Of a DNA stretch of 26,980 nt, positions 1,895-17,066 are shown piece after piece; positions within the stretch are counted from its first letter, which is position 1; each line of letters starts with the position of its first letter. Under the pieces are notes generated by a model. The model saw only the letters and a list, made by a program, of their open reading frames with translations. It ran no database searches and had not been told where the DNA came from. The translations under genes and the position numbers were made by a program. Source of the stretch: Candidatus Eiseniibacteriota bacterium (GTDB lineage: Bacteria; Eisenbacteria; RBG-16-71-46); assembly GCA_031364845.1 (NCBI GenBank), contig JANLWX010000121.1:1-26980 (forward strand), read 5' to 3'.

Positions 1895-3067
1895 CTATTC
1901 TGAGCCCGCATGCGCTTCCCGCGCAACTGTTGATCTCCTCATCGACTCGCGTCGTCTGTCTTGGATGAACTTTATTCCAAAGGTCTGCTCCGCCTCGTAC
2001 TGATTGTGAGCGCGGCAACGTAACCGCATGCGCTCCGCGGTGGCCTTGCCACCGCGTGCTACGGGATCGATGTGATCGAACTCGAGAAAGTGCCGCTCCG
2101 GACAGCGCTGGCCGGATTCGCTCACGAACGTGCACTGACACCCGTCGCGTTCGCGCACGGCGCGCCTTACGTGCGCCGGGATAGTCCGCGGATTCGCGCT
2201 TGCGCGGATCTGCCGAGGCTTGTCGGTCGCCGCGAACTGCGCCTTCTCCAAGTTCGCGATGAGCGCGTCGAGTGCGCGCTCCAGTACCTGAGGTACATCG
2301 CCTGAAGGAAGCGCGTGCGACAGCAACGCCTGCGCATGGCGCAGCTTGTCGTGCATCTCCTGGCTCATCGTAAGATGGAGCGCGTAGCGACGCGGCGCGA
2401 GGGGTTCGACCTTCGCCGGCCTCGAGGGTGCATCAACTGTCCGCGCGGACAGTTCAACTTCGGTCCGTCCCTCTTCGGTCCGAAGGACCGAAGAACTCTG
2501 TGTTACCGGGCGCACAATGCCAGCGGCCAGCTCGGCGTTCGAGTTGCCAACTTTCCGCGGGGCCAGTTGCGCATCACCGACTGCGTGCACACTCGCATTA
2601 TCAGCAGGCTGCGCTGCCGAGGTACTCGCGCGCGGCAGCGCCCGCACCCTCGTCGCGACATCCTCCTGCGGGTATCGCTCAGCCAGCAGCTTCTTGATCT
2701 CCCGACAACTCTTGTGGGTCACCGCTGCCAGCAGCTCGTCCACATTCCGACGCGTCATGTAGGCCTTCAACAGGATTAGCCCGCTCAGATGCACTCGATT
2801 CTCCGCGAGCGCGTCATAGATCGCGGGAAACCTGCGCGCCATGCGCCCGACACGAATGCGCTTGTACGCTGCCGGCTCGGAAAAGTGCAGGATGTCCACG
2901 CAGTACGAGAACATCGAAGAGTGCGCTGCCGCGCGAAATAGCTTGCGGGCGTCGACCTCGCCAATGTAGAGGACGAGCTTCGCGGTGTGCGTGCAGCCTC
3001 CAGCGACGATCGTCGCGAGGCCCTGCTCCACAACCTGATCGGTGAGATGGGAAAGTTCGCGTTTCAT
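1895..3067 (-). CDS. HNH endonuclease with DUF222-like N-terminal region (about 390 aa)
   Basis: GGAGG RBS before ATG 3067. N-terminal motif EVDARKLF...SSMFSYCVDILHFSEPAAYKRIRVGRMARRFP. C-terminal R.IPAHVRRAVRERDGCQCTF...RC...LEFDHIDPVARGG...LRCRAHN (HNH with Zn ligands). Low-complexity linker between the two. Confidence 0.9.
   Translation of the reverse strand: MKRELSHLTDQVVEQGLATIVAGGCTHTAKLVLYIGEVDARKLFRAAAHSSMFSYCVDILHFSEPAAYKRIRVGRMARRFPAIYDALAENRVHLSGLILLKAYMTRRNVDELLAAVTHKSCREIKKLLAERYPQEDVATRVRALPRASTSAAQPADNASVHAVGDAQLAPRKVGNSNAELAAGIVRPVTQSSSVLRTEEGRTEVELSARTVDAPSRPAKVEPLAPRRYALHLTMSQEMHDKLRHAQALLSHALPSGDVPQVLERALDALIANLEKAQFAATDKPRQIRASANPRTIPAHVRRAVRERDGCQCTFVSESGQRCPERHFLEFDHIDPVARGGKATAERMRLRCRAHNQYEAEQTFGIKFIQDRRRESMRRSTVAREAHAGSE
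2435..2454. repeat. Perfect 20-bp palindrome AACTGTCCGCGCGGACAGTT (REP-like family copy inside the HNH gene)
   Basis: Read directly. Same AACTGTCC/GGACAGTT arms as 9778-9797 and 9849-9868. A 2-mismatch copy lies at 2549-2568. Confidence 0.8.
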
Positions 3068-3351
3068 GATCCCTCCGCGCATGACGACGATGCATCCGAT
3101 CGCGGGGGCGATGAACACGCGTTGATTCTATCCCATGCATTTTTGGCGCACGGAGATGCGCGGAGTTCGCATCATGGGGCGCACCGAGAAAAGTTTTCGC
3201 GGACGAGAGGATTGCGCATGCCATCGAGCGCCGTAGGCGCGATGCGGTGCGATCCGACAAGCATTCCGGATTTTCGAAGATTGCGCTTCAGAACCCGTCA
3301 AGAAGAAAAGACGGTCCGAACCGGGTACATGGGTAGCACCCGCGGTGCATA

Positions 3352-3427
3352 GTCGAGTAGCCCCGGCGGTTTCGACAACCGGGGCCCTCGCCAGATCCGG
3401 ACTAGGAGATTGCCACCATCCGGCTCT
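3352..3427 (-). ncRNA. Group II intron catalytic domains V and VI
   Basis: AGC triad, CCGGA/UCCGG stem, GCAA tetraloop. DVI stem GCCCCGG/CCGGGGC followed by the branch A and a 3' AC. Confidence 0.9.
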
Positions 3428-4760
3428 TCCGTTGGTGCGGCTCGCGGCGATCGCCCCATACCGATACGGTGATGAGGGGTGCAGGAAGCGGAAGGCGCCG
3501 AAGCAGCGCGCTGAACCGTTCCCAGTTGAGACGACGTTTCTGGCTACGACGACGAAGCCACAGGTACCAGATGCGTTCAGTGGCCTGCACCAGATTCTTC
3601 AGGCTCTGTCCGTTGCCATTCACTCCGAAGTAGTTGAAGTGCCCTCGGAGCCGTCTCGTGAGCGCGGCGTGCTGATCCTTGACCGGTAGGTGCCGGTGGC
3701 GCCGGCAGTACTCGGCGACGGACTGTATCGCCCGTCTGAGTCGCGCACGCCGGGTCTTACACCACATCTGCCATCGGCCACTGAGCGTTCGCCGCCAGTA
3801 GAGCGTGAAGCCCAGAAAGTCGAAGCTGGCCGGACCTCGGCCCCCGGTCCCCGTCGGTCTTATGAAGGGCACCAGACGCGTCTTGTCCGCGTGGAGAGTC
3901 AGTCCGTAACGTCCCATCCGCTGAGGCAGCACCGCCATCACCCGTTCCGCATCGTCCTTGCGCTCGAAGCCGATGACGAAGTCATCCGCATACCGCACGA
4001 GGGTTGCTTTCCCCCGTAGTCGCGGTCGGACCTCGCGTTCGAACCACAGGTCGAGTACGTAGTGGAGATAGACGTTGCCGAGCAGCGGTGAGATCACCGA
4101 CCCCTGCGTCGTGCCCTGATCCGGCTCGGAGTACTCCGCTCCGTCGAGCACGCCTACATGCAAGCACTTGCCGACCAGTCGCAACAGCGACCCGTCGGCG
4201 ATTCGTTCGCGGAGCATCTCCATCAGATGGGTGCGGTCCACGCTGTCGAAGAAGGAGACGATGTCCGCCTCCAGTACCCAGCTCACTTCACCCCGGAACA
4301 CGACTCGGTTCATCGCACGAAGTGCGTCATGGGCGCCGCGCTCGGGTCGAAAGCCATACGAACAGTCCAGAAACTCCTGTTCGTAGATCGCTTCCAGTAC
4401 TTCCCGCACCGCGTCCTGAACGATCTTGTCTTCGATCGTCGAGATCCCAATCGGCCGCGTCTTGCCCTGCTCCTTGGGGATGTTCACACGTCGGATCGGT
4501 TGATGCCGCCATCGCTGGGACTTCAACCGTGCGTGCAGATCTTGCAGCCGAGGCCGCAGGTCCTGCCCGTATTGTTCCTTCGTGATCCCATCCACACCTA
4601 CCGCCGCACCCTTGCGGAGACGATGGTAGGCCCGTTCGAGACTCGGCACATCGATGAGATGCGCCAGTGAGTGGAACTTCCCCGCGCGTTCGTTTCGCGC
4701 TCGTTCCGCTACCTTCCGAAGTTGCGGTGACATGCGTTCCGATGTCGAAGCATCGGGCAT
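3402..4760 (-). CDS. ltrA: Group II intron reverse transcriptase/maturase (452 aa), no endonuclease domain
   Basis: GVDG (RT0), IPK..G.TRPIGI, SYGFRP, ADIVSFFD, GTTQGSVISPLLGNVYLHYVLDLWF, RYADDF, FDFLGF and domain X (LRGHFNYFG). No C-terminal HNH. GGAGG RBS. Confidence 0.97.
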   Translation of the reverse strand: MPDASTSERMSPQLRKVAERARNERAGKFHSLAHLIDVPSLERAYHRLRKGAAVGVDGITKEQYGQDLRPRLQDLHARLKSQRWRHQPIRRVNIPKEQGKTRPIGISTIEDKIVQDAVREVLEAIYEQEFLDCSYGFRPERGAHDALRAMNRVVFRGEVSWVLEADIVSFFDSVDRTHLMEMLRERIADGSLLRLVGKCLHVGVLDGAEYSEPDQGTTQGSVISPLLGNVYLHYVLDLWFEREVRPRLRGKATLVRYADDFVIGFERKDDAERVMAVLPQRMGRYGLTLHADKTRLVPFIRPTGTGGRGPASFDFLGFTLYWRRTLSGRWQMWCKTRRARLRRAIQSVAEYCRRHRHLPVKDQHAALTRRLRGHFNYFGVNGNGQSLKNLVQATERIWYLWLRRRSQKRRLNWERFSALLRRLPLPAPLITVSVWGDRREPHQRKSRMVAIS

Positions 4761-5315
4761 GGTGCCCTCCGAGAGTTCGCATCAACACGGACCGCCTTTG
4801 CTCCGCCGGGTCCGGTTACCATCCCGTTCCCCGACTTCATCGCTCGTATGCGGTCCTCCGACTCCCTCGCCACCTTCGGTCGCGGCTTCGGTTGCCCCTT
4901 GCCCGCGCCCTACCACCATCTGCCGTGGAGTGGTGAGGGTCTCCCAAGTGCCTGGGACGTCCTCGTTGAGCGTGCCGTGATTCCTAACCCCGTCCGTTGC
5001 GCCGTCCACTCACCCGTTCCCACGTGCTCGGCGCTGCTGCCTTCGAGTGACAGTAAGCTCTCGGCTCCGGAGATGACCCGATTTCGGGGCTAACTCACGC
5101 GGCCCACTCACTCGCGTGCCTACGCATCGCCGCGTCCGTTACCGTCCGCGTCGCAAGGCTCGCTTCCGGCCCGCCGGGTTCAGCTTTGGCCGGTCGGTTT
5201 CGCACCCGCTGGACGCCTCACAGAATTTCAGGTCGCTACCGCTTCGCGTCCCTCCCTTCTGTCCAAGCTGGCTTGGTCGCACACTGTCCCCGAAGACAGT
5301 TGAAACGCGCGGATC

Positions 5316-6308
5316 TCACACCCCACACACCTCGCGCGCAAACCGCTCCACGATCTCTCCCGCCGGCTCGACCGCTCCGATCGTCGCCACGCTCTTGCCC
5401 GCCTGCCAGTAGTCGCTGCGTGATTCATCGAGCGACGTGCGCTTCAACATCAGCCCCGCGCGTAACGCGTACAAAGATCTCATCAGATAGCGCGTGCGCT
5501 TTCCGCGCAGCAACCATCGCGCGATCGCGCCGGAGCGTAGACCGATGCGCTGAACATAGGGCGTGTTCAATACCGACACGGGAATCCCGGTCAGCCGCTC
5601 GGTCAGCACGACGTCGCCTTCTCCGGCGCGTACGATCGCCTGCTTGTAAGCATCGCTCGCCCGGCATTCGGGCGTCGCGATGAAGCGTGTGCCGAGCTGC
5701 GCTCCGGCGTAGCCCATCGCGAGCGCATCCTTGAATTCGCGCGCATCGCCGATGCCTCCGGCGCACACGACCGGTAAGCCCAAAGGCGCCAGCTCATCCA
5801 ACAGCGCCCGCACTTCGCGCGGCCCGGCGTGCCCGCCAGCGCGACGGTTCACGGCGATCAGTCCATCGACGCCGGCATCCGCGCCTTTCTGTCCCCACTT
5901 CAGCTCGGTGACGTCGTGGTACACGACGCCGCCGAGCGGTTTCACACGATCCACGACCCACCGCGGGTTGCCCAATGAAGTCACAAAAAATCGAACGCCC
6001 TCTTCGAGGGCGATATCCACCCACTTCACCATGCGCTCGTGATAGCGCTTCGACGATTTCTCGATCAGCGCGTTCATACCGACCGGCTTGGAGGTCAGGC
6101 GGCGAATCAACTGCAGTCCGGCGCGAAACTCGTGTCCGTGAACGAAGGTCAGCGAGATCGGCTGAATGATCCCGAGGCCGCCGGCGTCGGACACGGCGGC
6201 GACCAGCTCGGGATTGCTGCACGGGTACATGGCGCCGCAGATGAGGGGAACTTCGATGCGCGCCTGGCGCGCGAGGGGCGTAGCGAGCGCCTCACACGGC
6301 GCGATCAC
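5316..6308 (-). CDS. Nitronate monooxygenase / NAD(P)H-dependent flavin oxidoreductase family protein
   Basis: [56 protein letters not shown]. Likely GTG start at 6308 overlapping the upstream stop (GTGA). Confidence 0.92.
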
Positions 6309-6817
6309 GCGCGGCCCAGCCGCCACTTCACCGTCACGCGGGCGACAACGTCGCCCGCAGCGTCACGAATGTCGGCGTACACGTGATGATCGACGCTTGC
6401 CAACACCTCCGGCACATCGCAGCGACTCTCGGCGACGAGTTTCCCGCGCGCCTTCTTCATGTACACGATGTCGATGCCGGTCACGATGCCGCGCACGCCC
6501 GATGGCAGCGCGCACATCATCGCGAGGCCGCTCGCCAGCTCGCCGACGTTCGCGAGCGCGATCGCGTGCACGGACTTGAGGTGGTTCCGCACGCCGCGCC
6601 AGTCGTTCATGACGATGCGAGCGTGGCCGGGTTCGAGCTCGAGCACGCGGGCGCCGGTGGTTCCGCTGTAGGGGACGACGAAGAACAGCACGCGAGAGAA
6701 GATCCACGAGCCGCCGGGGAGCGGGCTGAGGCGCCGCCACCACGCGAGCAACGGCGTAACGCCGCCGCTGCGGGTTCTCGCAGCGGTGGCAGGTTGGGTC
6801 GTGGTCTCAACGGTCAT
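6305..6817 (-). CDS. Hotdog-fold thioesterase-like protein (DUF4442/PaaI-like)
   Basis: [46 protein letters not shown]. Confidence 0.88.
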
Positions 6818-9775: not shown

Positions 9776-9870
9776 CGAACTGTCCGCAAGGACAGTTCGC
9801 AGTCTTAACCCTTGATCTCTTCTTGCAGCACTCACGCGAAAGACTGCGAACTGTCCTTGCGGACAGTTCG
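9776..9870. repeat. REP-like doublet (REPIN-like): perfect 31-bp inverted repeats with a 33-bp spacer; possible bidirectional terminator
   Basis: CGAACTGTCCGCAAGGACAGTTCGCAGTCTT (9776-9806) and its exact reverse complement (9840-9870). Each unit is itself a 10-bp-stem hairpin with a 4-nt loop. It fills the gap between convergent genes. Confidence 0.88.
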
Positions 9871-9872
9871 CT

Positions 9873-10841
9873 TTATGGTGGCGTAAACACAAACGGCGCC
9901 TGAAACGTCGTCGCCCCATGCGCGATCGCCGGGAACTTCCACTCCCGAATCTGCGACAACGCGCACGCTTCCAAACGCGTCGATGCCATCGTGTCGCTCA
10001 GGATCCGAGCGTCAGTCACTTCCCCGGCCGCAGAAACCGTCAAAGCCACCACCAGCTTTCCGCGCAGCCCCGGCGCCCGGGTCAGCTCATTGCTGTAGCA
10101 GTACTGAATCCCCGCCGCATACTTCTGCACCGCCGTAAGCAGTGACGCGTTACTGCGCTGCGTCGCGGACGCCGTCGAGGCCGTCACCGCGTCGGCAGTG
10201 CCGTCGTCTTCCGTCCGCGCGGATTCCAAAGCTCCGATCGCAACCTGCGAGCCCTTAACCGTCGCGCCATCGAGCGCAGTGCTGGTGCCCGCCGCTCCAG
10301 GATCGACCGAGGCCAGCATCTGGTCCGATCGGCCGGAACGCACGCCGCGTGAACGGCGCCCCCGCGCGGGCTCGGTGGCGTTCGCACTCAGCGCACCCGT
10401 GAGATCGCCGAGACTCCGGTCGAGCGCGGACGTCGCGCTCGCCAGTGCAGCAGTCGCTTCGTTCGCGCGCGCGCGTCCTTCGGTTCCGGCATCGGGATCG
10501 AGCGGCGCCTGGCGCTTCGGCGGGGCTGCCGCTTCGAGTTTCTCCGCCTCCGTCGCGGGGCGTTGCTTGAACTCCTGGACCGTGAGGTTCTCCGGGATCT
10601 GCTGGGGCACGGACGCGGGCGGCGGGATCTCCGGCAGTTCCTGGATCAGAATCGTGCGCGACTTGGGCAACAGCACGCGGATCACCGCAGCCTCGTTGCG
10701 CGGCCACAGCAGCACGGTGACGAAGAACAGGAACGACGCGACCGCCGAAGCAAACAATAACGCCTTCGCTACGCGCTCGCGATTCGCGTCGAACAGCCCG
10801 CGACGCTGCGAACTCATGAGAAGTCCCGACGGCATCATCAT
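9873..10841 (-). CDS. TonB-like / AgmX-PglI C-terminal domain protein (GltG/GltJ-like energy transducer)
   Basis: ATGA overlap with the upstream stop and GGGAGA RBS. One N-terminal TM helix, Pro/Ala-rich linker, C-terminal IQYCYSNEL..PGLRGKLVVALTV...G.V...LEACAL..IREWKFP....F.APFVF. Confidence 0.85.
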   Translation of the reverse strand: MMMPSGLLMSSQRRGLFDANRERVAKALLFASAVASFLFFVTVLLWPRNEAAVIRVLLPKSRTILIQELPEIPPPASVPQQIPENLTVQEFKQRPATEAEKLEAAAPPKRQAPLDPDAGTEGRARANEATAALASATSALDRSLGDLTGALSANATEPARGRRSRGVRSGRSDQMLASVDPGAAGTSTALDGATVKGSQVAIGALESARTEDDGTADAVTASTASATQRSNASLLTAVQKYAAGIQYCYSNELTRAPGLRGKLVVALTVSAAGEVTDARILSDTMASTRLEACALSQIREWKFPAIAHGATTFQAPFVFTPP

Positions 10842-11242
10842 GGCGCGGTCTCCCGGCGTGTGCTGCCCGTGACGGTCATCCATGACGGAATCGGCGTGGC
10901 TTCGATCAGATCGCGGCTCGACTTGAGATAGCGCGCGTGATGGAAGTCCGCGAAGCGGCGCTGATCGCGCGCGGTGATGAACAGCACCTGCGGCACGGGC
11001 ACTTCACCCGCGATGTGAGTGGTCTCGATGCGGCGCGCGGGAGCGGCACCCGGCTGCGCAGGCGCCGCCGCCCGGACCGAGGCGCGGCCCGCACGGCTCG
11101 TGTCGCGCTTCGCCGCCGCAACGCGCGCCGCGGTGGCAGCCGGCGTGAAGGCGTCCGCGCGCGACTTCACTCCGGACTTGGCGGCCAACGCGATGCCGGG
11201 CATCCCGAGCAACACGACCATCACCGCGCACCAGCGCCTCAT
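10838..11242 (-). CDS. Small exported protein, GltF/CglF-like
   Basis: ATGA overlap and GGAGG RBS. Signal peptide, Ala-rich linker, motif IETTHIAGEVPVPQVLFI resembling the I.G....P motif of GltF-like proteins. Located between a TPR lipoprotein and a TonB-like gene. Family call is inference. Confidence 0.6.
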   Translation of the reverse strand: MRRWCAVMVVLLGMPGIALAAKSGVKSRADAFTPAATAARVAAAKRDTSRAGRASVRAAAPAQPGAAPARRIETTHIAGEVPVPQVLFITARDQRRFADFHHARYLKSSRDLIEATPIPSWMTVTGSTRRETAP

Positions 11243-12147
11243 CGGGCACCTCCCTGCTTCGCCAAGTCGTCCGACTCGGCCGCGGGCAACGCGCCGAACG
11301 TGGGCTGCAGGCTGTCGGGGTCGTCGTGCGAGCGCTTCCAATAGGCATCGAACCAGCGCTTGGCCGCGCGGTCGTCCAATCCGTAGAACTTCTCGAGGAT
11401 CGCGAGGTTGTAGTACGGGCCCGGCAGCTTCGAATCGATTTCAATCGCGGCCATGAATGCCGCTCGCGCCGCACGCACATCGCCCGCGCGCAGCTTCGTG
11501 ATTCCGAAGTTGTTCTGATGCACCGCACTCTTCGGCTCGTCGCCCACCGCCTTCACGGCGTCCTTCACCGCGTCGTCGGGCGTCTCACCGCGCAGCATCA
11601 CGAACACGCGCGCCGGGCGGATCGAGGCGCGGCCGGGGTCGGCCAGCGTGGCCAGGATCGCGCGCGCCTGCTCGGGCTGATCGAGTGCGTCGTAGTGCAT
11701 CGCGAGTCCCGCGAGCAGCTCGTCCGGCACCGCACCCTGTTTGCGCGCCGCTTCGAGCAGCGCGATACCCTCGGCGTGGCGGCGTGAGCCGAAGTAGAGC
11801 TTCGACAGCAGCGCGAGTGCCGGAGCATACGAAGGCTCGCGTTCGAGCGAAGCGCGCAGCGACGCCTCGGCGGCGGACAGCGAATCGATCTCCACGAACA
11901 TTTGCGCCAGGCGATACGGCCAGTAGGGCTCGAGCGGTGCGAGTGCCGCACGTTCACCCACGGCGATGCGTTCCCGCTCCGCGCGCTGCTCGGGTGTCGT
12001 CTCTTCGTGATTGGAGGCATCGGGCAGGCTCGTGACGCGCCCCGGCTCCGCGACGCCACGGTCCATGAGCCCCGCGACGCGACAGCCACCGAGCGCCATG
12101 CACGCCACGGCGATCAACGCGAGTTCGATTGTCCGGTGCGTTCTCAC
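11239..12147 (-). CDS. TPR lipoprotein (GltE-like position)
   Basis: GTGA overlap, lipobox ALGG-C, TPR motifs (YAPALALLSKLY; VHQNNFGI...A..AF..AIEIDSKLPGPYYNLAIL). Confidence 0.82.
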   Translation of the reverse strand: MRTHRTIELALIAVACMALGGCRVAGLMDRGVAEPGRVTSLPDASNHEETTPEQRAERERIAVGERAALAPLEPYWPYRLAQMFVEIDSLSAAEASLRASLEREPSYAPALALLSKLYFGSRRHAEGIALLEAARKQGAVPDELLAGLAMHYDALDQPEQARAILATLADPGRASIRPARVFVMLRGETPDDAVKDAVKAVGDEPKSAVHQNNFGITKLRAGDVRAARAAFMAAIEIDSKLPGPYYNLAILEKFYGLDDRAAKRWFDAYWKRSHDDPDSLQPTFGALPAAESDDLAKQGGAR

Positions 12148-15100
12148 TTCACCTCCCGCGTCGCATCACCCCGCGGTGTCGTCGATGCATCCGTCTCGAG
12201 CATCGTCGGATCGCTGCCGCGCGCGGGCGGCGTCGCCGCGACCAGCGGATAGTCGGTTTCGGGCCGGAAGAAGAAGCGGGTGCCGAGGCGCTGCCACAGC
12301 GACGATTCCGCCTTCTCGATCCACGCATCACGCGCCGCGCCCTCGGCCTGCTGGCGCAGCAGATCGGACCACACGCCTTCGCCACGATCGTGGTACGGCC
12401 TGCTCTTCACCGACAGCACCTCTTCGTAGGCCGCGAGGTCGTCACCCTTGAGATCGGCAGGTCGCTCGCTGCGCTCCAGCGCCTCGGCGAAGCCGACCAG
12501 CGCCTCACCCATGCGGAACGCCGCGGCGTGCGACCACTCGGGCACGCCGAGATCGGCCGTGCGGCGATAGAGCGCGAGCGTGCGGTCGAGCGCCTTGAGG
12601 CGCGGGGCGATCGACTTCGCGAGCGGCTGCTTGAGTCGCATTTGCGCGGCCGCGGCGAACGACGCTTCCGCCTCGAGGAACCGCACGCGAGCGAGCAACG
12701 ACGGCGACGCCGCGTTCGGATGCGTTTCTGCGCGTTTGAGATATTGGGCGAGATAGGACGGCGGCGCTGCCTTCACACCCTTGGCCGCGCGCGGCGTCGC
12801 GAGCAACGCAGCGAGCGGCTTTCCGGCGTCGACCGCATCGAGATCACGGCGCGCGAACGGCTCCAGAATCTCGAGCGCGGCCTCGTGATCGGCGGGGAAC
12901 GCCGCGAGATACGCGAGTCGCTGCTCGTCGGCGCGCGCGTTGAGACCGCCGGCTTCGAACAGGTCGGCCGCTTCGAGCCACGCGCCGTGCGCGCTCGCGT
13001 CATCGGGAAAGCGTGCGGCGAACCGCGCGTAGGCTTCGGCCGCGCGCTCACGGTCGTTCGCCTGCTTCCACGCTGCGGCGATGTGCAGGTGTGCGTCGCG
13101 CACGTACGGGCTGTTTGGAAAGTCGGTGATCACCGCGTCCATCGCGCACACCGCGGCGTCGGTTTTTCCTGCGGCGAGGAACGCGAGCCCCGCGCGATAC
13201 TGCGCGAGATGCGCGTGCTCGTAGGCGGGCCAGCGATGCGCGATCGTCTCGAAGCGCGCCGCGTGGGCTTCGTACTGCGTCGAATCGGCGGCGACTTGCG
13301 CCTCGGCGTGACGGTAGTAAGCGATCGGAATCGCGCGTGCCGCGGCGCGGCCGAGCGAGTCGTTGCCCGCGCGTTGCGCGACGATCTGTGCCGCCTCATA
13401 TGCGACCGCCGCATCCGCAAACCGATCGAGCCGGTACAGAGCGTCGGCGCGCAGGCAAGCGGCCTGTGGCACGTGCGGGTCGGTGCCGTGATGCTTTGCG
13501 AGCCTCTCGAAGTCCTGTGCGGCTCGCTCGTATTCGCCATGCGCGAACGCGAGATTCCCCGCGCGCCACACCAGCTCGGGCGCCCGCGGATGACGCGGGT
13601 ACCGCGCGAGCAACTCATCAACGGAACCGAGCACGATGTGCGCGAGCGAATCGCGACCGAGTACGGCAGGTGTACCGGATCCCGCGTGCGCGGCCGTGGC
13701 CGTGCCGCGATACCACTCATCCGCCACCGCGACGCGCTGCCACAACGCCGCCTGGGCCACGCTGTCGCGCTTCGATGCCGCGGCGATGCCGTAGAGCTGG
13801 AGCGACTGCGCATGCTTCCCGAGCGCCGACGCCGCTTCGCCCGCGGCGAGCGCCAGCATCTCGTTCTCGGAATCGTGCGGCCAGCGCTCGAGCAGGATCT
13901 CGTACGTCGCGAGCGCCTTGCCCCAGTCCGCGGGGGCGCCATTCTTGCGCGCGAGACGATGATGCTCGCGTGCCGCTGCGGTCCATGATGCGCGCGCGAA
14001 GTCCGAGCCCGCGCGGCGCAGTGAATCCGACGTCTGTGCTTCCGCCCACGCGCTGCCCGGCGCGAACTTCGGAGCGTAGTCGAGCCGCGCCCGCGTGATC
14101 TCGGCGCGCGGGCTCGTACGCCGCCGCGAGGCGAGCATCCGTTGCACGCCGAGCAGCGCGTCCGGGTGCTTCGGATAACGCGCGGCGAACAGCTCGTCGG
14201 CCGCACCCGCATCCGCGTGCAGGCCGAGGCGGCGCAGATTCTCTCCGAGCGCCAGCAGCACGCGCGTCTCGTAGGGGCGCGGCCCAATGCGATCGAAGTA
14301 CTCCGCGAACACGCGCGCGCCGCCGGCGCCGGCGAGTGAGTGCACGAGGTACGCTTCGGCTTCGTCCGCCAGATCCGCCTGCTTCGCGATCGCCGGCTGT
14401 TCGCTGTAGAGATCGAGCACCGAGCGGAATGAATCCGCGGCCTCGCGATAGCGGTTCTCGAGATAGTGACTCCATCCCGACTTGTAGAGAGCGATCGCCG
14501 TGAGGCCCGCCTCTCCGCCCGCCGCGGCCTTACCGTAGAGCGCGATCGCCTCGGTGTACTGCGACGCGCCGAAGCGCATGTCGCCCATGCGCAGATACGT
14601 CTCCTGACAGTAGTCCGATTGCGGATGCGTGCGCACGAGTTCGGCGAACAAGACTTCCGCTTCACGCGCGCCCGAATCGCCCTGATCGGCGAGCAGCATC
14701 GCGGCATTGAACATCGCGGCATCGCGATGCTCGAACGCGGCGTCCTCTGTCAGAAGCGCGCGATACAGCGAGAGCGGTTCTGCGATGCTCAGCACCGGCA
14801 GCGGGCCGGCGGGGCGTTGTTCCGATGACGCTCGCAGATACTCCGCCATGCGTCGATTGAAATCGTGCCGCGCCTCGACCAGCAGGAGATCCGCGAGGCG
14901 AAAGCGCATCTCGCCGCGCGCGAACGAGCGTGGGTGCTTGCCGAGGAATGCGCGCGTGCGCGCGATCGCGCCGGCACGCCAGCGGTTCAGGAACGGATCG
15001 TCGGCCTTGGTGCCGGTCATCGCCGTGGTCGTGTCGTCCACGCCGCGCGCGAGCATCGCCGGCGCGGAAGCGGGTGTCGCCGCGAGGTTCACGCCGAGCC

Positions 15101-17066
15101 CGTAAGCCGCCGACGCGAGGCCGTAGTCGATCGCTTCGCGCTCGTCGGCGAGGGCCGCGATGGCGCGCGTCACCGCGGTGCGCGCGACGTCGGCGCGCAG
15201 GGCGTCGTGACGGTCGCCGAGCGAATCGGCCGTGCGCTCGAGCCGAGTCACGCTGGCCAGCAGTGTGCGCAGTTCCGGGCTCGTCGCGTACGCCGCGATG
15301 CTCGAGTCGATGCTCCCGGCAAGCCGCCGCGCCCACGCGAGCGCGCGGGCCGCTTCGTCGGCCTGACGGCGGCTGCGATCGATCAGCCCCGGGCGCCACG
15401 CCTGTTCGTAGGAGCGCGCAATGAGATCGGGGGCCGACGCCGCCAGATCCTGCACGGCGGCCAGGATCTCGCGCGCAAGGCCCTCCTCCGCGCGGAGCAC
15501 CGAGTCGGGCGCAACGTGTCCCGCGGGTGCGGCGAGCAGCGCCGCCCGGCGCGGGCCGTCGAGGTGGAAGTGGCGCATGCCGCCGATCCACAACAGATCG
15601 TTCGCGCACTGTTCGACGACACTCGTCGCGCGCTCCAGCACGCGGCGCGTCGCCGCGTCACGCACGGATCGCAGGCGCGCATCAAGCGCTTCCAACGTGC
15701 GGCGCAACGAGTCGAGCAGCGCCGCGCGCGCCACCAACTCGCGTGTCTCGCGCTGCGTGAGCTCCTGTCCCGCTCCGAGATAGCGACGAAGCTCTTCGAG
15801 CCGCTCTCGCTCGGCCGCCAGATCCCAGCGGGTGCGCGTGAGGTTCGCCATGGCTTCGTCGGCGTCGCGCGCCGCCTGCGCCACCGCAGTCCACTCCTGA
15901 GCTGAAGGCAGCGGAACGTTCGACGGCAGCGACGCGCGCGCGGCAACATCGAGCACCGGCACCTTCAACTCCGGACGCAACGTGAGATCGAGCGAAGCAC
16001 GCGCGAGCACGTCTGCTCCGCCCTTCGCAAGCCGCGCGTCCAGCACCAGCACATCGGCTGGATTGGCATCGAGGCCCCATGCCGCCCACACGTCATCGAA
16101 TGCGCGGGCTTCGAGCGTCCGCGTGAGCCCGTCGCGATCGCGCGTCCACTCGCGATCGATCTGCTCGTACGATTCGAGCGCCCTCGACCAGCTCGCGCGA
16201 TCGAGCGCGCGGCCTGCGAGCGCGAGGCCCACCTGCCGCCGCCCGGCGTACGACGAGTCGGCGCGCAATGCTTCGAGAATGCGCTCGCCATTTGCGGCGT
16301 CGCCGTGCTCGAGCGTGTGCGTCGCGAGGATGTGCTGCGCGCGCGCCGCATAGCGGCTTCCGGCGGGCACGGCCTCGAGCAGCGCGCGCGGATCCTCGCC
16401 TCGCGCGAGTGCCTGCTGCGCGCGGCGCACGAGAGCCGCACCCGCTAGATCGCGGCCGAGCGTGGTCTCGGTATCGGTGGCGAGACGTGCCCACTCGGCG
16501 TCTGCGTTGCCGCCCTGCGCTTCGAGCGCGAGCGCCGCGCGATATGTGGTGAGCGCTGAAGGCCCCGCGGAACCGGTGGCGTCGAGCGCCGGTGCCGGAG
16601 CCGCTTCGACCAGCTCACGCTGGAACGCGAGCCATCCCGTGTACGGCGACGGGAGGTTCCACGCCGCAACGACTGTCGCGAGCGACGTGAACGCCGCGAT
16701 GTCGCCGAGATTCAGATACGCGTGCCCGAGCAGGAACGCGGCGCGATCCGCTTCGCGAACTCCGGCGGACGCCGCGAAGTCGATCGGCTCGAGATTCTCG
16801 ATCACACCGCGCGGATTGCCGGCGCGCCACTCGGCCACCGCGCGTCCCAGACGGAATGCAACCGGATCGACACGCGGCGCATCAGGCGACGCTTCGTCTC
16901 CCGCACGTGCGGTGGACGCGTTACGCCCGGCTGCCGCGGCGCGCGCCGCCGCCAGATCGACCGCATCCGCGCCGGAACCACCCGCGCGCGCGCTCTCCCG
17001 CAGCGGCGCGCACAGCGCGGTCGCCGCGGCCAGGATCGCGAGGCCGTGGTGTGCTCTCAGGCGCAT
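12144..17066 (-). CDS. Giant exported TPR/coiled-coil protein (1640 aa; GltD/AgmU-like C-terminal part)
   Basis: Signal peptide, Ala-rich helical sequence and many TPR motifs (EMRFRLADL, HPQSDYCQETYLRMGDMRF, ALYKSGWSHY, YPRHPRAPELVWRAG, FPNSPYVRDA, EWSHAAAFRMGE). Confidence 0.85.
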   Translation of the reverse strand: MRLRAHHGLAILAAATALCAPLRESARAGGSGADAVDLAAARAAAAGRNASTARAGDEASPDAPRVDPVAFRLGRAVAEWRAGNPRGVIENLEPIDFAASAGVREADRAAFLLGHAYLNLGDIAAFTSLATVVAAWNLPSPYTGWLAFQRELVEAAPAPALDATGSAGPSALTTYRAALALEAQGGNADAEWARLATDTETTLGRDLAGAALVRRAQQALARGEDPRALLEAVPAGSRYAARAQHILATHTLEHGDAANGERILEALRADSSYAGRRQVGLALAGRALDRASWSRALESYEQIDREWTRDRDGLTRTLEARAFDDVWAAWGLDANPADVLVLDARLAKGGADVLARASLDLTLRPELKVPVLDVAARASLPSNVPLPSAQEWTAVAQAARDADEAMANLTRTRWDLAAERERLEELRRYLGAGQELTQRETRELVARAALLDSLRRTLEALDARLRSVRDAATRRVLERATSVVEQCANDLLWIGGMRHFHLDGPRRAALLAAPAGHVAPDSVLRAEEGLAREILAAVQDLAASAPDLIARSYEQAWRPGLIDRSRRQADEAARALAWARRLAGSIDSSIAAYATSPELRTLLASVTRLERTADSLGDRHDALRADVARTAVTRAIAALADEREAIDYGLASAAYGLGVNLAATPASAPAMLARGVDDTTTAMTGTKADDPFLNRWRAGAIARTRAFLGKHPRSFARGEMRFRLADLLLVEARHDFNRRMAEYLRASSEQRPAGPLPVLSIAEPLSLYRALLTEDAAFEHRDAAMFNAAMLLADQGDSGAREAEVLFAELVRTHPQSDYCQETYLRMGDMRFGASQYTEAIALYGKAAAGGEAGLTAIALYKSGWSHYLENRYREAADSFRSVLDLYSEQPAIAKQADLADEAEAYLVHSLAGAGGARVFAEYFDRIGPRPYETRVLLALGENLRRLGLHADAGAADELFAARYPKHPDALLGVQRMLASRRRTSPRAEITRARLDYAPKFAPGSAWAEAQTSDSLRRAGSDFARASWTAAAREHHRLARKNGAPADWGKALATYEILLERWPHDSENEMLALAAGEAASALGKHAQSLQLYGIAAASKRDSVAQAALWQRVAVADEWYRGTATAAHAGSGTPAVLGRDSLAHIVLGSVDELLARYPRHPRAPELVWRAGNLAFAHGEYERAAQDFERLAKHHGTDPHVPQAACLRADALYRLDRFADAAVAYEAAQIVAQRAGNDSLGRAAARAIPIAYYRHAEAQVAADSTQYEAHAARFETIAHRWPAYEHAHLAQYRAGLAFLAAGKTDAAVCAMDAVITDFPNSPYVRDAHLHIAAAWKQANDRERAAEAYARFAARFPDDASAHGAWLEAADLFEAGGLNARADEQRLAYLAAFPADHEAALEILEPFARRDLDAVDAGKPLAALLATPRAAKGVKAAPPSYLAQYLKRAETHPNAASPSLLARVRFLEAEASFAAAAQMRLKQPLAKSIAPRLKALDRTLALYRRTADLGVPEWSHAAAFRMGEALVGFAEALERSERPADLKGDDLAAYEEVLSVKSRPYHDRGEGVWSDLLRQQAEGAARDAWIEKAESSLWQRLGTRFFFRPETDYPLVAATPPARGSDPTMLETDASTTPRGDATREVK

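Follow-up and report, generated by a model that had tools for sequence, protein, structure and literature searches.

A group II intron at a palindrome upstream of an HNH gene

The stretch of DNA analysed here, hereafter the window, comprises 26,980 nt of contig JANLWX010000121.1 (positions 1 to 26,980) from Candidatus Eiseniibacteriota bacterium, assembly GCA_031364845.1. A group II intron of 1,931 nt occupies positions 3352 to 5282 on the minus strand. Its 5' exon (5301–5283, minus strand) consists of nucleotides 1 to 19 of a 20-nt palindrome, and the last base of the palindrome, a T, lies beyond the 3' end of the intron at position 3351. The palindrome belongs to the upstream region of a gene of a multi-copy HNH family (DUF222-like; 1895–3067, minus strand). 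On the other side, a nitronate monooxygenase-family gene (5316–6326, minus strand) ends 33 nt before the intron and is the likely source of read-through transcription of the intron. No promoter or terminator was called within positions 3000–5500.

Read from 5282 to 3352, the intron starts with GUGCG, ends with CGAC and is intact. A 5' end of the GUGYG type, a 3' end of the AY type and a domain I core were found, together with a domain V (3393–3427, minus strand) carrying the AGC triad at 3425–3423 and a domain VI (3354–3390, minus strand) with a bulged branch A at 3358. Domains V and VI folded as expected, and domain I matched Rfam family RF02005 with 102 bits. The end motifs, domain I and the two folds bear out the limits given in an earlier annotation of the window (the original prediction). 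An alternative start at a GUGUG at 5284, which would give a different splice junction, was excluded for two reasons: homologues with different exons start at the same G as the 5282 form, and the uninterrupted forms of two junctions, found on contigs C89 and C219 (see below), read GACAGT and then T. The start at 5282 was therefore kept.

An open reading frame (ORF) at 3402–4760 on the minus strand encodes a 452-aa reverse transcriptase/maturase with an intact YADD motif and without an endonuclease domain. The protein matched TIGR04416 with 344 bits (cut-off, 300), and a Pfam search returned RVT_1 only. In a tree of 24 sequences and 422 columns, this intron-encoded protein (IEP) grouped with a class E reference, an S.meI4-like protein (45% identity), rather than with references of classes D, g1 and g3 at an ultrafast bootstrap value of 100, a placement relative to a set that held one class E reference and no labelled reference of class A, B, C, CL or ML, and from which the g2 reference was left out because it gave no ORF. 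The class E reference is a Sinorhizobium meliloti intron identified via plasmid pRmeGR4b and its disrupted state; the pRmeGR4b intron is named class E in the available part of PMC5894124. The description of the element as a class E-like intron lacking an endonuclease is borne out by this tree, by the Pfam result and by the exon-binding sites described below, which are of the IIB type.

Identification of EBS1, EBS2 and EBS3

The exon-binding sites (EBS) were assigned by covariation with the exons of 80 homologue loci, whose junctions were called by intron-end motifs. In a set of 30 distinct domain I sequences, which keeps two mis-called starts, intron bases 229 to 234 were the best-pairing columns for exon positions −1 to −6, with 20–26 of 30 Watson-Crick pairs each. 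These bases are ACUGUC at 5054–5049 on the minus strand, and the consensus fold leaves them in a hairpin loop. The proposal that ACUGUC is EBS1 was confirmed by this covariation, and the fold of domain I placed it in the Id3 loop as predicted. EBS2 (CGGG; 5080–5077, minus strand; intron bases 203–206), which the original prediction had not named, pairs with exon positions −9 to −12, each position forming a Watson-Crick pair in 24–30 of 37 distinct guides. EBS3 was assigned to the A at 4985 on the minus strand (intron base 298), which formed a Watson-Crick pair with exon position +1 in 14 of 16 cases in the 30-sequence set and in 14 of 15 cases in the 37-guide set.

The corresponding intron-binding sites (IBS) in the window are IBS1 at 5288–5283, IBS2 at 5294–5291, with an unpaired linker at 5290–5289 between them, and IBS3, the T at 3351 (all on the minus strand). 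A location of EBS3 or delta-prime beside the GAAGGC motif was rejected because it showed no covariation; the pairing column follows CGGGGU. No clear covarying column was found near EBS2 for an EBS2a-like extra pair at −13/−14, the kind of pair considered in the available part of PMC8643678. Among the homologues, loci L038, L042, L047, L048, L050, L051, L057, L061, L073, L082, L085 and L086 start with G-N-N-GCG (GUUGCG, GAUGCG, GAAGCG or GUAGCG), that is, with one extra 5' base, and their EBS1 is still in register.

The palindrome family and the HNH gene unit

The palindrome occurs in the window at 2435, 2549 (two mismatches), 5282–5301, 9778 and 9849, which amounts to five matches compared with 0.04 expected; the four copies besides that of the intron had been listed in the original prediction and were all found. 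Genome-wide, 60 copies with up to two mismatches were detected at a spacer of 4 (17 exact, 16 with one mismatch and 27 with two mismatches), whereas spacers of 3, 5 and 6 gave 2, 1 and 0 matches, respectively, at the same tolerance. Similarly, ACTGTC-N6-GACAGT was found 45 times compared with 0–1 times at six other spacers. The ends of the palindromes account for 0.27% of the AGT sites in this genome.

The palindromes had been regarded as purely intergenic, a view that was not sustained. The perfect copy at 2435–2454 and the degenerate copy at 2549–2568 both lie in a coding linker of the HNH gene, the former in frame, and 17 of 56 core palindromes genome-wide lie in HNH genes, where they share one reading frame, and another 8 are found within 2 kb of such a gene. 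The copies at 9778 and 9849 form a REPIN-like doublet between convergent genes (9776–9870), which contains a 31-nt perfect inverted repeat. The family thus resembles repetitive extragenic palindromes (REPs) and REPINs in being a short multi-copy palindrome with a fixed spacer and doublets, but it is not confined to extragenic locations. REP families are defined by a GTAG or CGTC tag and a linked REP-associated tyrosine transposase (RAYT) gene; the ends of the family described here are ACT..AGT.

The HNH gene has more than 20 matches in this genome and is present in 50 of the 61 genomes searched, a set that includes one unpublished genome (G038) in the tallies only. Its protein gave no Pfam match at an E value of 0.001, where a gene of the DUF222-HNH type would be expected to show PF02720 plus an HNH domain; among the clusters of its neighbours in a protein atlas, HNH was found in 35–76%, and DUF222 in 23% of one cluster. 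Without the intron, the window palindrome would be 303 nt away from the start of the HNH gene, upstream of it, and palindromes of paralogues lie at 285, 310 and 322 nt. Of the 16 other HNH upstream regions, 5 carry a palindrome, 285–390 nt before the start. A TTGACG motif at 3296–3301 (minus strand), a possible −35 box, is conserved upstream of the HNH paralogues. The window copy of the intron sits upstream of this conserved motif, and its insertion is probably of little cost. In the HNH loci of relatives, a 20-nt ACT..AGT palindrome was found in 23 of 29 cases with 11 arm types, compared with 0–2 at other lengths, and the ACTGTC arm variant itself was patchy (16 of 61 genomes). Judged from sequence, the target of the intron is part of an HNH-palindrome unit and not merely an extragenic repeat.

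The same genome carries a second group II intron, which starts with UUGCG and interrupts, in antisense orientation, the cysteine codon of the HNH R-C-R-x-H-N motif. Four 5' stubs (C224:20157, C70:40511, C163:33235 and C34:103551) and two 3' stubs (at the starts of contigs C110 and C165) were found, but the assembly does not contain its body. A GTGCG that follows the palindrome in the HNH gene of contig C158 was considered as an intron start; as the ORF is continuous there, it was taken as a chance occurrence.

Insertion sites in this genome

The genome contains at least three near-identical copies of the intron, which is collapsed in the assembly. In addition to the window copy, 5' stubs were found on contigs C220 and C219 and 3' stubs on contigs C89 and C64 (99–100% identical). 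In one run of contigs from what is likely the source study, the depth was 48–50 in the intron compared with 13–15 in the flanks, and the contigs were shared through GACAGT and through T. As identical copies lie at different sites, the intron appears to have been mobile recently. All three assembled 5' exons are the palindrome short of its last base, and all three assembled 3' exons begin with the missing T. Two of the three assembled 5' junctions lie in palindromes of HNH units.

The junctions on C219 and C89 lie inside an HNH gene, and for each of them the other contig has the uninterrupted form across 93 identical bases. They would represent two alleles or, alternatively, a single locus in which 93 bp are duplicated, and were counted as one insertion, which gives three insertions in total. 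An exact 93-bp (31-codon) unit bounded by palindromes flanks the intron on both sides (C219:31244–31336 and C89:44925–45017); if this is one locus, it would show how HNH linkers could gain palindromes in frame. A count that treats C219 and C89 as independent insertions, giving 4 of 4 sites, was not adopted, since one duplicated locus fits the 3 + 3 junctions and the depth equally well. Two loose ends hint at further insertion sites, neither of which was located in the assembly.

GACAGT-T, the sequence that pairs with EBS1 and EBS3, occurs 244 times in the genome, and 67 of these sites are palindrome ends by arm count (69 by a second count). When EBS2 was added, 35 full matches remained, of which 27 were palindromic by arm count (26 by the second count). 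The probability that three of three insertions fall in palindromes was accordingly 0.023 for EBS1 plus EBS3 (69/244) and 0.41 once EBS2 was included (26/35); under four-site counting, the values were 0.006 and 0.30. As the probability is 0.41 once EBS2 is counted, the guides explain the choice of sites. These values, which refer to three sites, suggest that base pairing suffices and that recognition of a hairpin is not needed. Each perfect palindrome had been expected to offer a site on both strands. This held for EBS1 plus EBS3 in 24 of 45 palindromes, but with EBS2 included only 5 of 45 carried a full target on both strands, 15 carried one on one strand, and 25 carried none. The palindromes at 9778 and 9849 are both predicted to be empty targets.

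Related introns and their targets

The IEP falls in a compact clade whose 25 members show 81–87% identity. A metagenome scan that demanded AGT before the intron yielded 17 matches, of which two were introns of this clade (L111 and L112); the other 15, and a match in genome G030, were not introns. No further member was found in 206 genomes of the phylum, in 168 and 401 genomes of a second and a third phylum, or in viral contigs. L112 (84% identical, with the ORF deleted) is inserted in an AACTTGC arm variant of the palindrome in the same register as the window copy, and its EBS1, ACUUGC, pairs at six of six positions.

A second lineage, found in genome G070 by domain I similarity with no condition on the flanks, has 49% IEP identity to the window intron. 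All six of its 5' junctions lie in ACT..(A/G)GT palindromes, five of which are imperfect, and this genome's own arm variant occurs in it 14 times. Two copies that are 97% alike differ in EBS1 (ACUCUC and ACUGUC) and in EBS3 (C and A), in step with their sites. In a tree of 33 sequences, the window and G070 lineages lay apart, separated by relatives with other targets; the nearest relative of the G070 lineage, in genome G063, has a non-palindromic target. The idea that the guide is adapted to the palindrome gains support from L112 and the G070 pair, in which the guides change with the palindrome variant.

Other relatives also occur repeatedly at particular sites. The sister intron of the G070 lineage has three copies in G063 (L215, L221 and L224), all at a single non-palindromic site that is conserved and apparently coding. 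A relative with 69% identity is present four times in Sorangium cellulosum So ce56 (L064, L065, L066 and L081), each time in a purine-rich repeat that matches its EBS1, EBS2 and EBS3. Copies of a 44%-identical intron in G054 (L005, L017, L131 and L141) share a common repeated 5' flank, which at L017 follows an HNH-like gene by approximately 280 nt. In the outgroup, L031, L033, L037, L052, L059, L106, L193, L197 and L198 have TAGG approximately 7–11 nt before the site, possibly another repeated target.

Proposed mechanism and alternative explanations

The boundaries, guides, sites, copy number, recent copying and covariation described above were read from the nucleotide sequence, and the following steps would build on them. 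In our view, the element is likely to be an intact class E intron that finds the palindromes of a multi-copy HNH unit by their sequence, the unit serving it as a renewable and low-cost landing pad. The intron would be transcribed from an upstream promoter by read-through and would splice as a lariat. The lariat would then reverse-splice into DNA where 11 bases pair, namely EBS1 with GACAGT (−6 to −1), EBS2 with YYYG (−12 to −9) and EBS3 with T (+1). This rule would lead it mainly to the 20-nt ACT...AGT palindromes in HNH linkers, approximately 300 nt upstream of HNH starts and between genes. Because the IEP has no endonuclease, insertion would be expected to take place at replication forks and to favor the lagging-strand template, as for class D introns. 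The HNH unit itself may spread, and its copy number and conservation would select fitting guides; sense insertions in the HNH gene could be spliced out.

Several observations weigh against this proposal. Only three junctions were available in this genome, and the C220 site is not adjacent to an HNH gene. Of the 56 core palindromes, 31 lie more than 2 kb from an HNH gene or on contigs without one, coding and non-coding copies being counted together. No contig spans the window locus, and no empty-site joint was found among four source-study runs. With regard to the relatives, L111 and L112 are a biased sample of the 25-member clade, given that AGT was required, a sample of 2 whose flanks could be read; the contig that carries L112 is short and showed no HNH gene. 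The G070 evidence comes from one genome, in which four of six junctions are remnants without a readable guide. Finally, L111, the closest full-length relative (83%), occupies a non-palindromic site within the codons for H-N-Q-Y in an HNH gene. Homologues at sites unrelated to the palindrome would speak against the original prediction, and L111 is such a case in part, yet its site is inside the same HNH gene family. Its guide pairs at six of six positions with 11 of 13 HNH motifs in this genome and with 21 of 26 pattern matches in the loci of relatives, and its wobble pairs fall on codon third positions. After this codon fit was counted, L111 appeared less likely to be a displaced palindrome-targeting intron. 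When anchored from the 5' side, EBS3 of L111 is U, and an extra T makes this reading ambiguous.

An unlikely alternative is that the hairpin is needed besides the sequence, as for IIC introns, or that its loop acts as a toehold, EBS2 pairing with the loop and EBS1 displacing the left arm. In its favor, IBS2 lies in the spacer of the palindrome, EBS1 is identical to the left arm, and none of the eight non-palindromic full matches is occupied. In addition, 4 of 51 outgroup junctions have a stem of at least 6 bp, none from this palindrome family, compared with 0.6% in shuffled sequences; this excess, a further point against a purely sequence-guided intron, leaves room for some stem preference in the wider clade. 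On the other hand, the three palindromic insertions are expected from sequence alone, in five of the six G070 sites an arm pair is broken or a wobble, and L111 occupies a site without a stem. The hairpin energies of the occupied sites (−5.3 to −6.3) lie inside the range of empty sites (−4.5 to −7.3). IIC introns, as far as the available part of PMC7923331 describes them, are without EBS2 and insert after the stem and not at its last base. The short EBS1 and missing EBS2 of IIC introns were not seen here, where a 6-nt EBS1 and a 4-nt EBS2 covary with the exons. The analogy to IIC introns drawn in the original prediction is therefore unnecessary, since the intron has an EBS2 and the sequence rule alone predicts palindromes.

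It is highly unlikely that no adaptation is involved, that is, that a founder happened to reach a palindrome, that drift then brought its guides into agreement with the site, and that later copies followed only because the repeat dominates the matching sites. The guides of the wider clade do vary freely and match whichever site is occupied, and any intron with a fitting guide would pile up on a repeat family. However, two lineages have reached the same palindrome family in the same register and in three arm variants, although palindrome ends make up so small a share of AGT sites. Furthermore, two more introns have reached active-site codons of the HNH gene, one of them being L111 with its third-position wobbles.

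That the predicted HNH nuclease nicks the palindromes or active-site codons, and that introns borrow the nick or the exposed strand for priming or ride the unit, seems barely probable. A single nuclease-bearing unit is the target of four intron types, and the length and ACT..AGT ends of the palindrome are kept while its arms vary in 11 ways, as would be expected for a protein-bound site. Copy number and conservation alone nevertheless account for this convergence, just as they do when RmInt1 and RmInt2 target insertion sequence (IS) elements; moreover, in-gene insertions disable the nuclease unless spliced, and an antisense intron cannot be spliced from the HNH mRNA. If the nuclease did help the introns, this would be a new priming route.

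The possibility that a collapsed repeat was joined chimerically at the window locus during assembly, and that the restored palindrome is an artefact, can hardly be credited: the intron is indeed collapsed, with stubs at contig ends and no contig across the locus, but every 5' exon is the 19-nt palindrome and every 3' exon starts with T, so that any pairing restores the palindrome, and the joined site lies at a distance from the HNH start like those of the paralogues. The claim that rejoining the exons restores a 20-bp palindrome is thus strengthened by the standard HNH-unit layout that it rebuilds and qualified in that no contig spans this pairing of 5' and 3' exons.

Comparison with known systems

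Sequence-guided homing into the repeats of another mobile element has a precedent in RmInt2 of Sinorhizobium meliloti GR4, a class D intron without an endonuclease that, according to the available parts of PMC4615759 and PMC5894124, homes into the terminal inverted repeats of ISRm17. These inverted repeats give sites on both replication strands, and fork-dependent insertion with a lagging-strand bias was measured (PMC4615759, in part). The use of both orientations is thus already described for RmInt2. The present intron resembles RmInt2 in its multi-copy inverted-repeat target, in the U-A type of the EBS3-IBS3 pair, in the two unpaired bases between IBS1 and IBS2 and in its tolerance of an imperfect IBS2. 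Unlike RmInt2, it belongs to class E, its target is a self-complementary 20-mer that belongs to an HNH unit, and the guides shift with the arm variants across genomes. It resembles S.meI4 of pRmeGR4b in having RT-X only and EBS1, EBS2 and EBS3 of the IIB type (PMC5894124, in part).

With IIC and IIC-attC introns, as described in the available parts of PMC7923331 and PMC12584367, it shares multi-copy palindromic and often intergenic landing sites. Those introns, however, have a 3–4-bp EBS1, no EBS2 and an upstream stem-loop, whereas this intron pairs over 6 + 4 + 1 bp and inserts within the palindrome. In the same sources, the hairpin reading is described for IIC introns only and speculated for IIB and class E introns; PMC7923331 mentions fragmentary class E introns beside attC-like hairpins, a role for which is only speculated there. 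The present system could be used to test hairpin reading by non-IIC introns, which that source leaves open. A repeated palindrome also serves as a landing pad for the REP-targeting IS elements ISPa11, ISPpu9, ISPpu10 and ISPsy8, and two of nine Pseudomonas putida group II introns are REP-associated (PMC1525189, in part). In those IS elements, extragenic REPs are recognized by a transposase protein; here, recognition would be RNA-guided, and about a third of the palindromes are coding.

The HNH-palindrome unit resembles the REP-RAYT system: in both, short palindromes flank a nuclease gene, and REPIN-like doublets occur. The RAYTs, which are HUH enzymes, are single-copy, in contrast to the HNH gene, which has more than 20 copies and carries palindromes in frame. 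Like the present gene, HNH genes of the DUF222-HNH or REP13E12 type are multi-copy and have a helical N-terminal part. A bolder reading, which we regard as rather improbable, is that the HNH gene and the ACT..AGT palindromes constitute a selfish element not described so far, the equivalent of REP-RAYT with an HNH enzyme, on which several endonuclease-less class E introns have independently specialized, re-tuning their guides to the individual arm variants or to the active-site codons and priming from its cut without a fork.

No class E intron homing to such palindromes and no HNH-family specialists were found described in the literature searched, a search that reached neither subscription journals nor the intron database nor supplements on bioRxiv; a term search of PMC7306698 gave no occurrence of "palindrom", "repeat" or "HNH". 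The strategy of retroelements living on other repeated elements is known, and what is new is the target, the repeated convergence on it and the guide series. The three arm variants, including one 97%-identical pair with a switched guide, form a natural series of guides and targets in which RNA-guided re-targeting can be observed. The findings also draw attention to an unstudied HNH-palindrome unit that is conserved and common enough for use by four intron types.

Other features of the genome and the window

An unrelated reverse transcriptase is encoded in the same genome at C61:68736–69488; it shows 33–40% identity and lies outside the class E group. Within the window, an ISL3 transposase gene that looks intact is located at 32–1279, approximately 600 nt from the HNH gene. 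Positions 9873–17066 encode an AgmX/TonB-C-terminal protein and large TPR-like proteins, an arrangement that resembles a myxobacterial gliding-type cluster.

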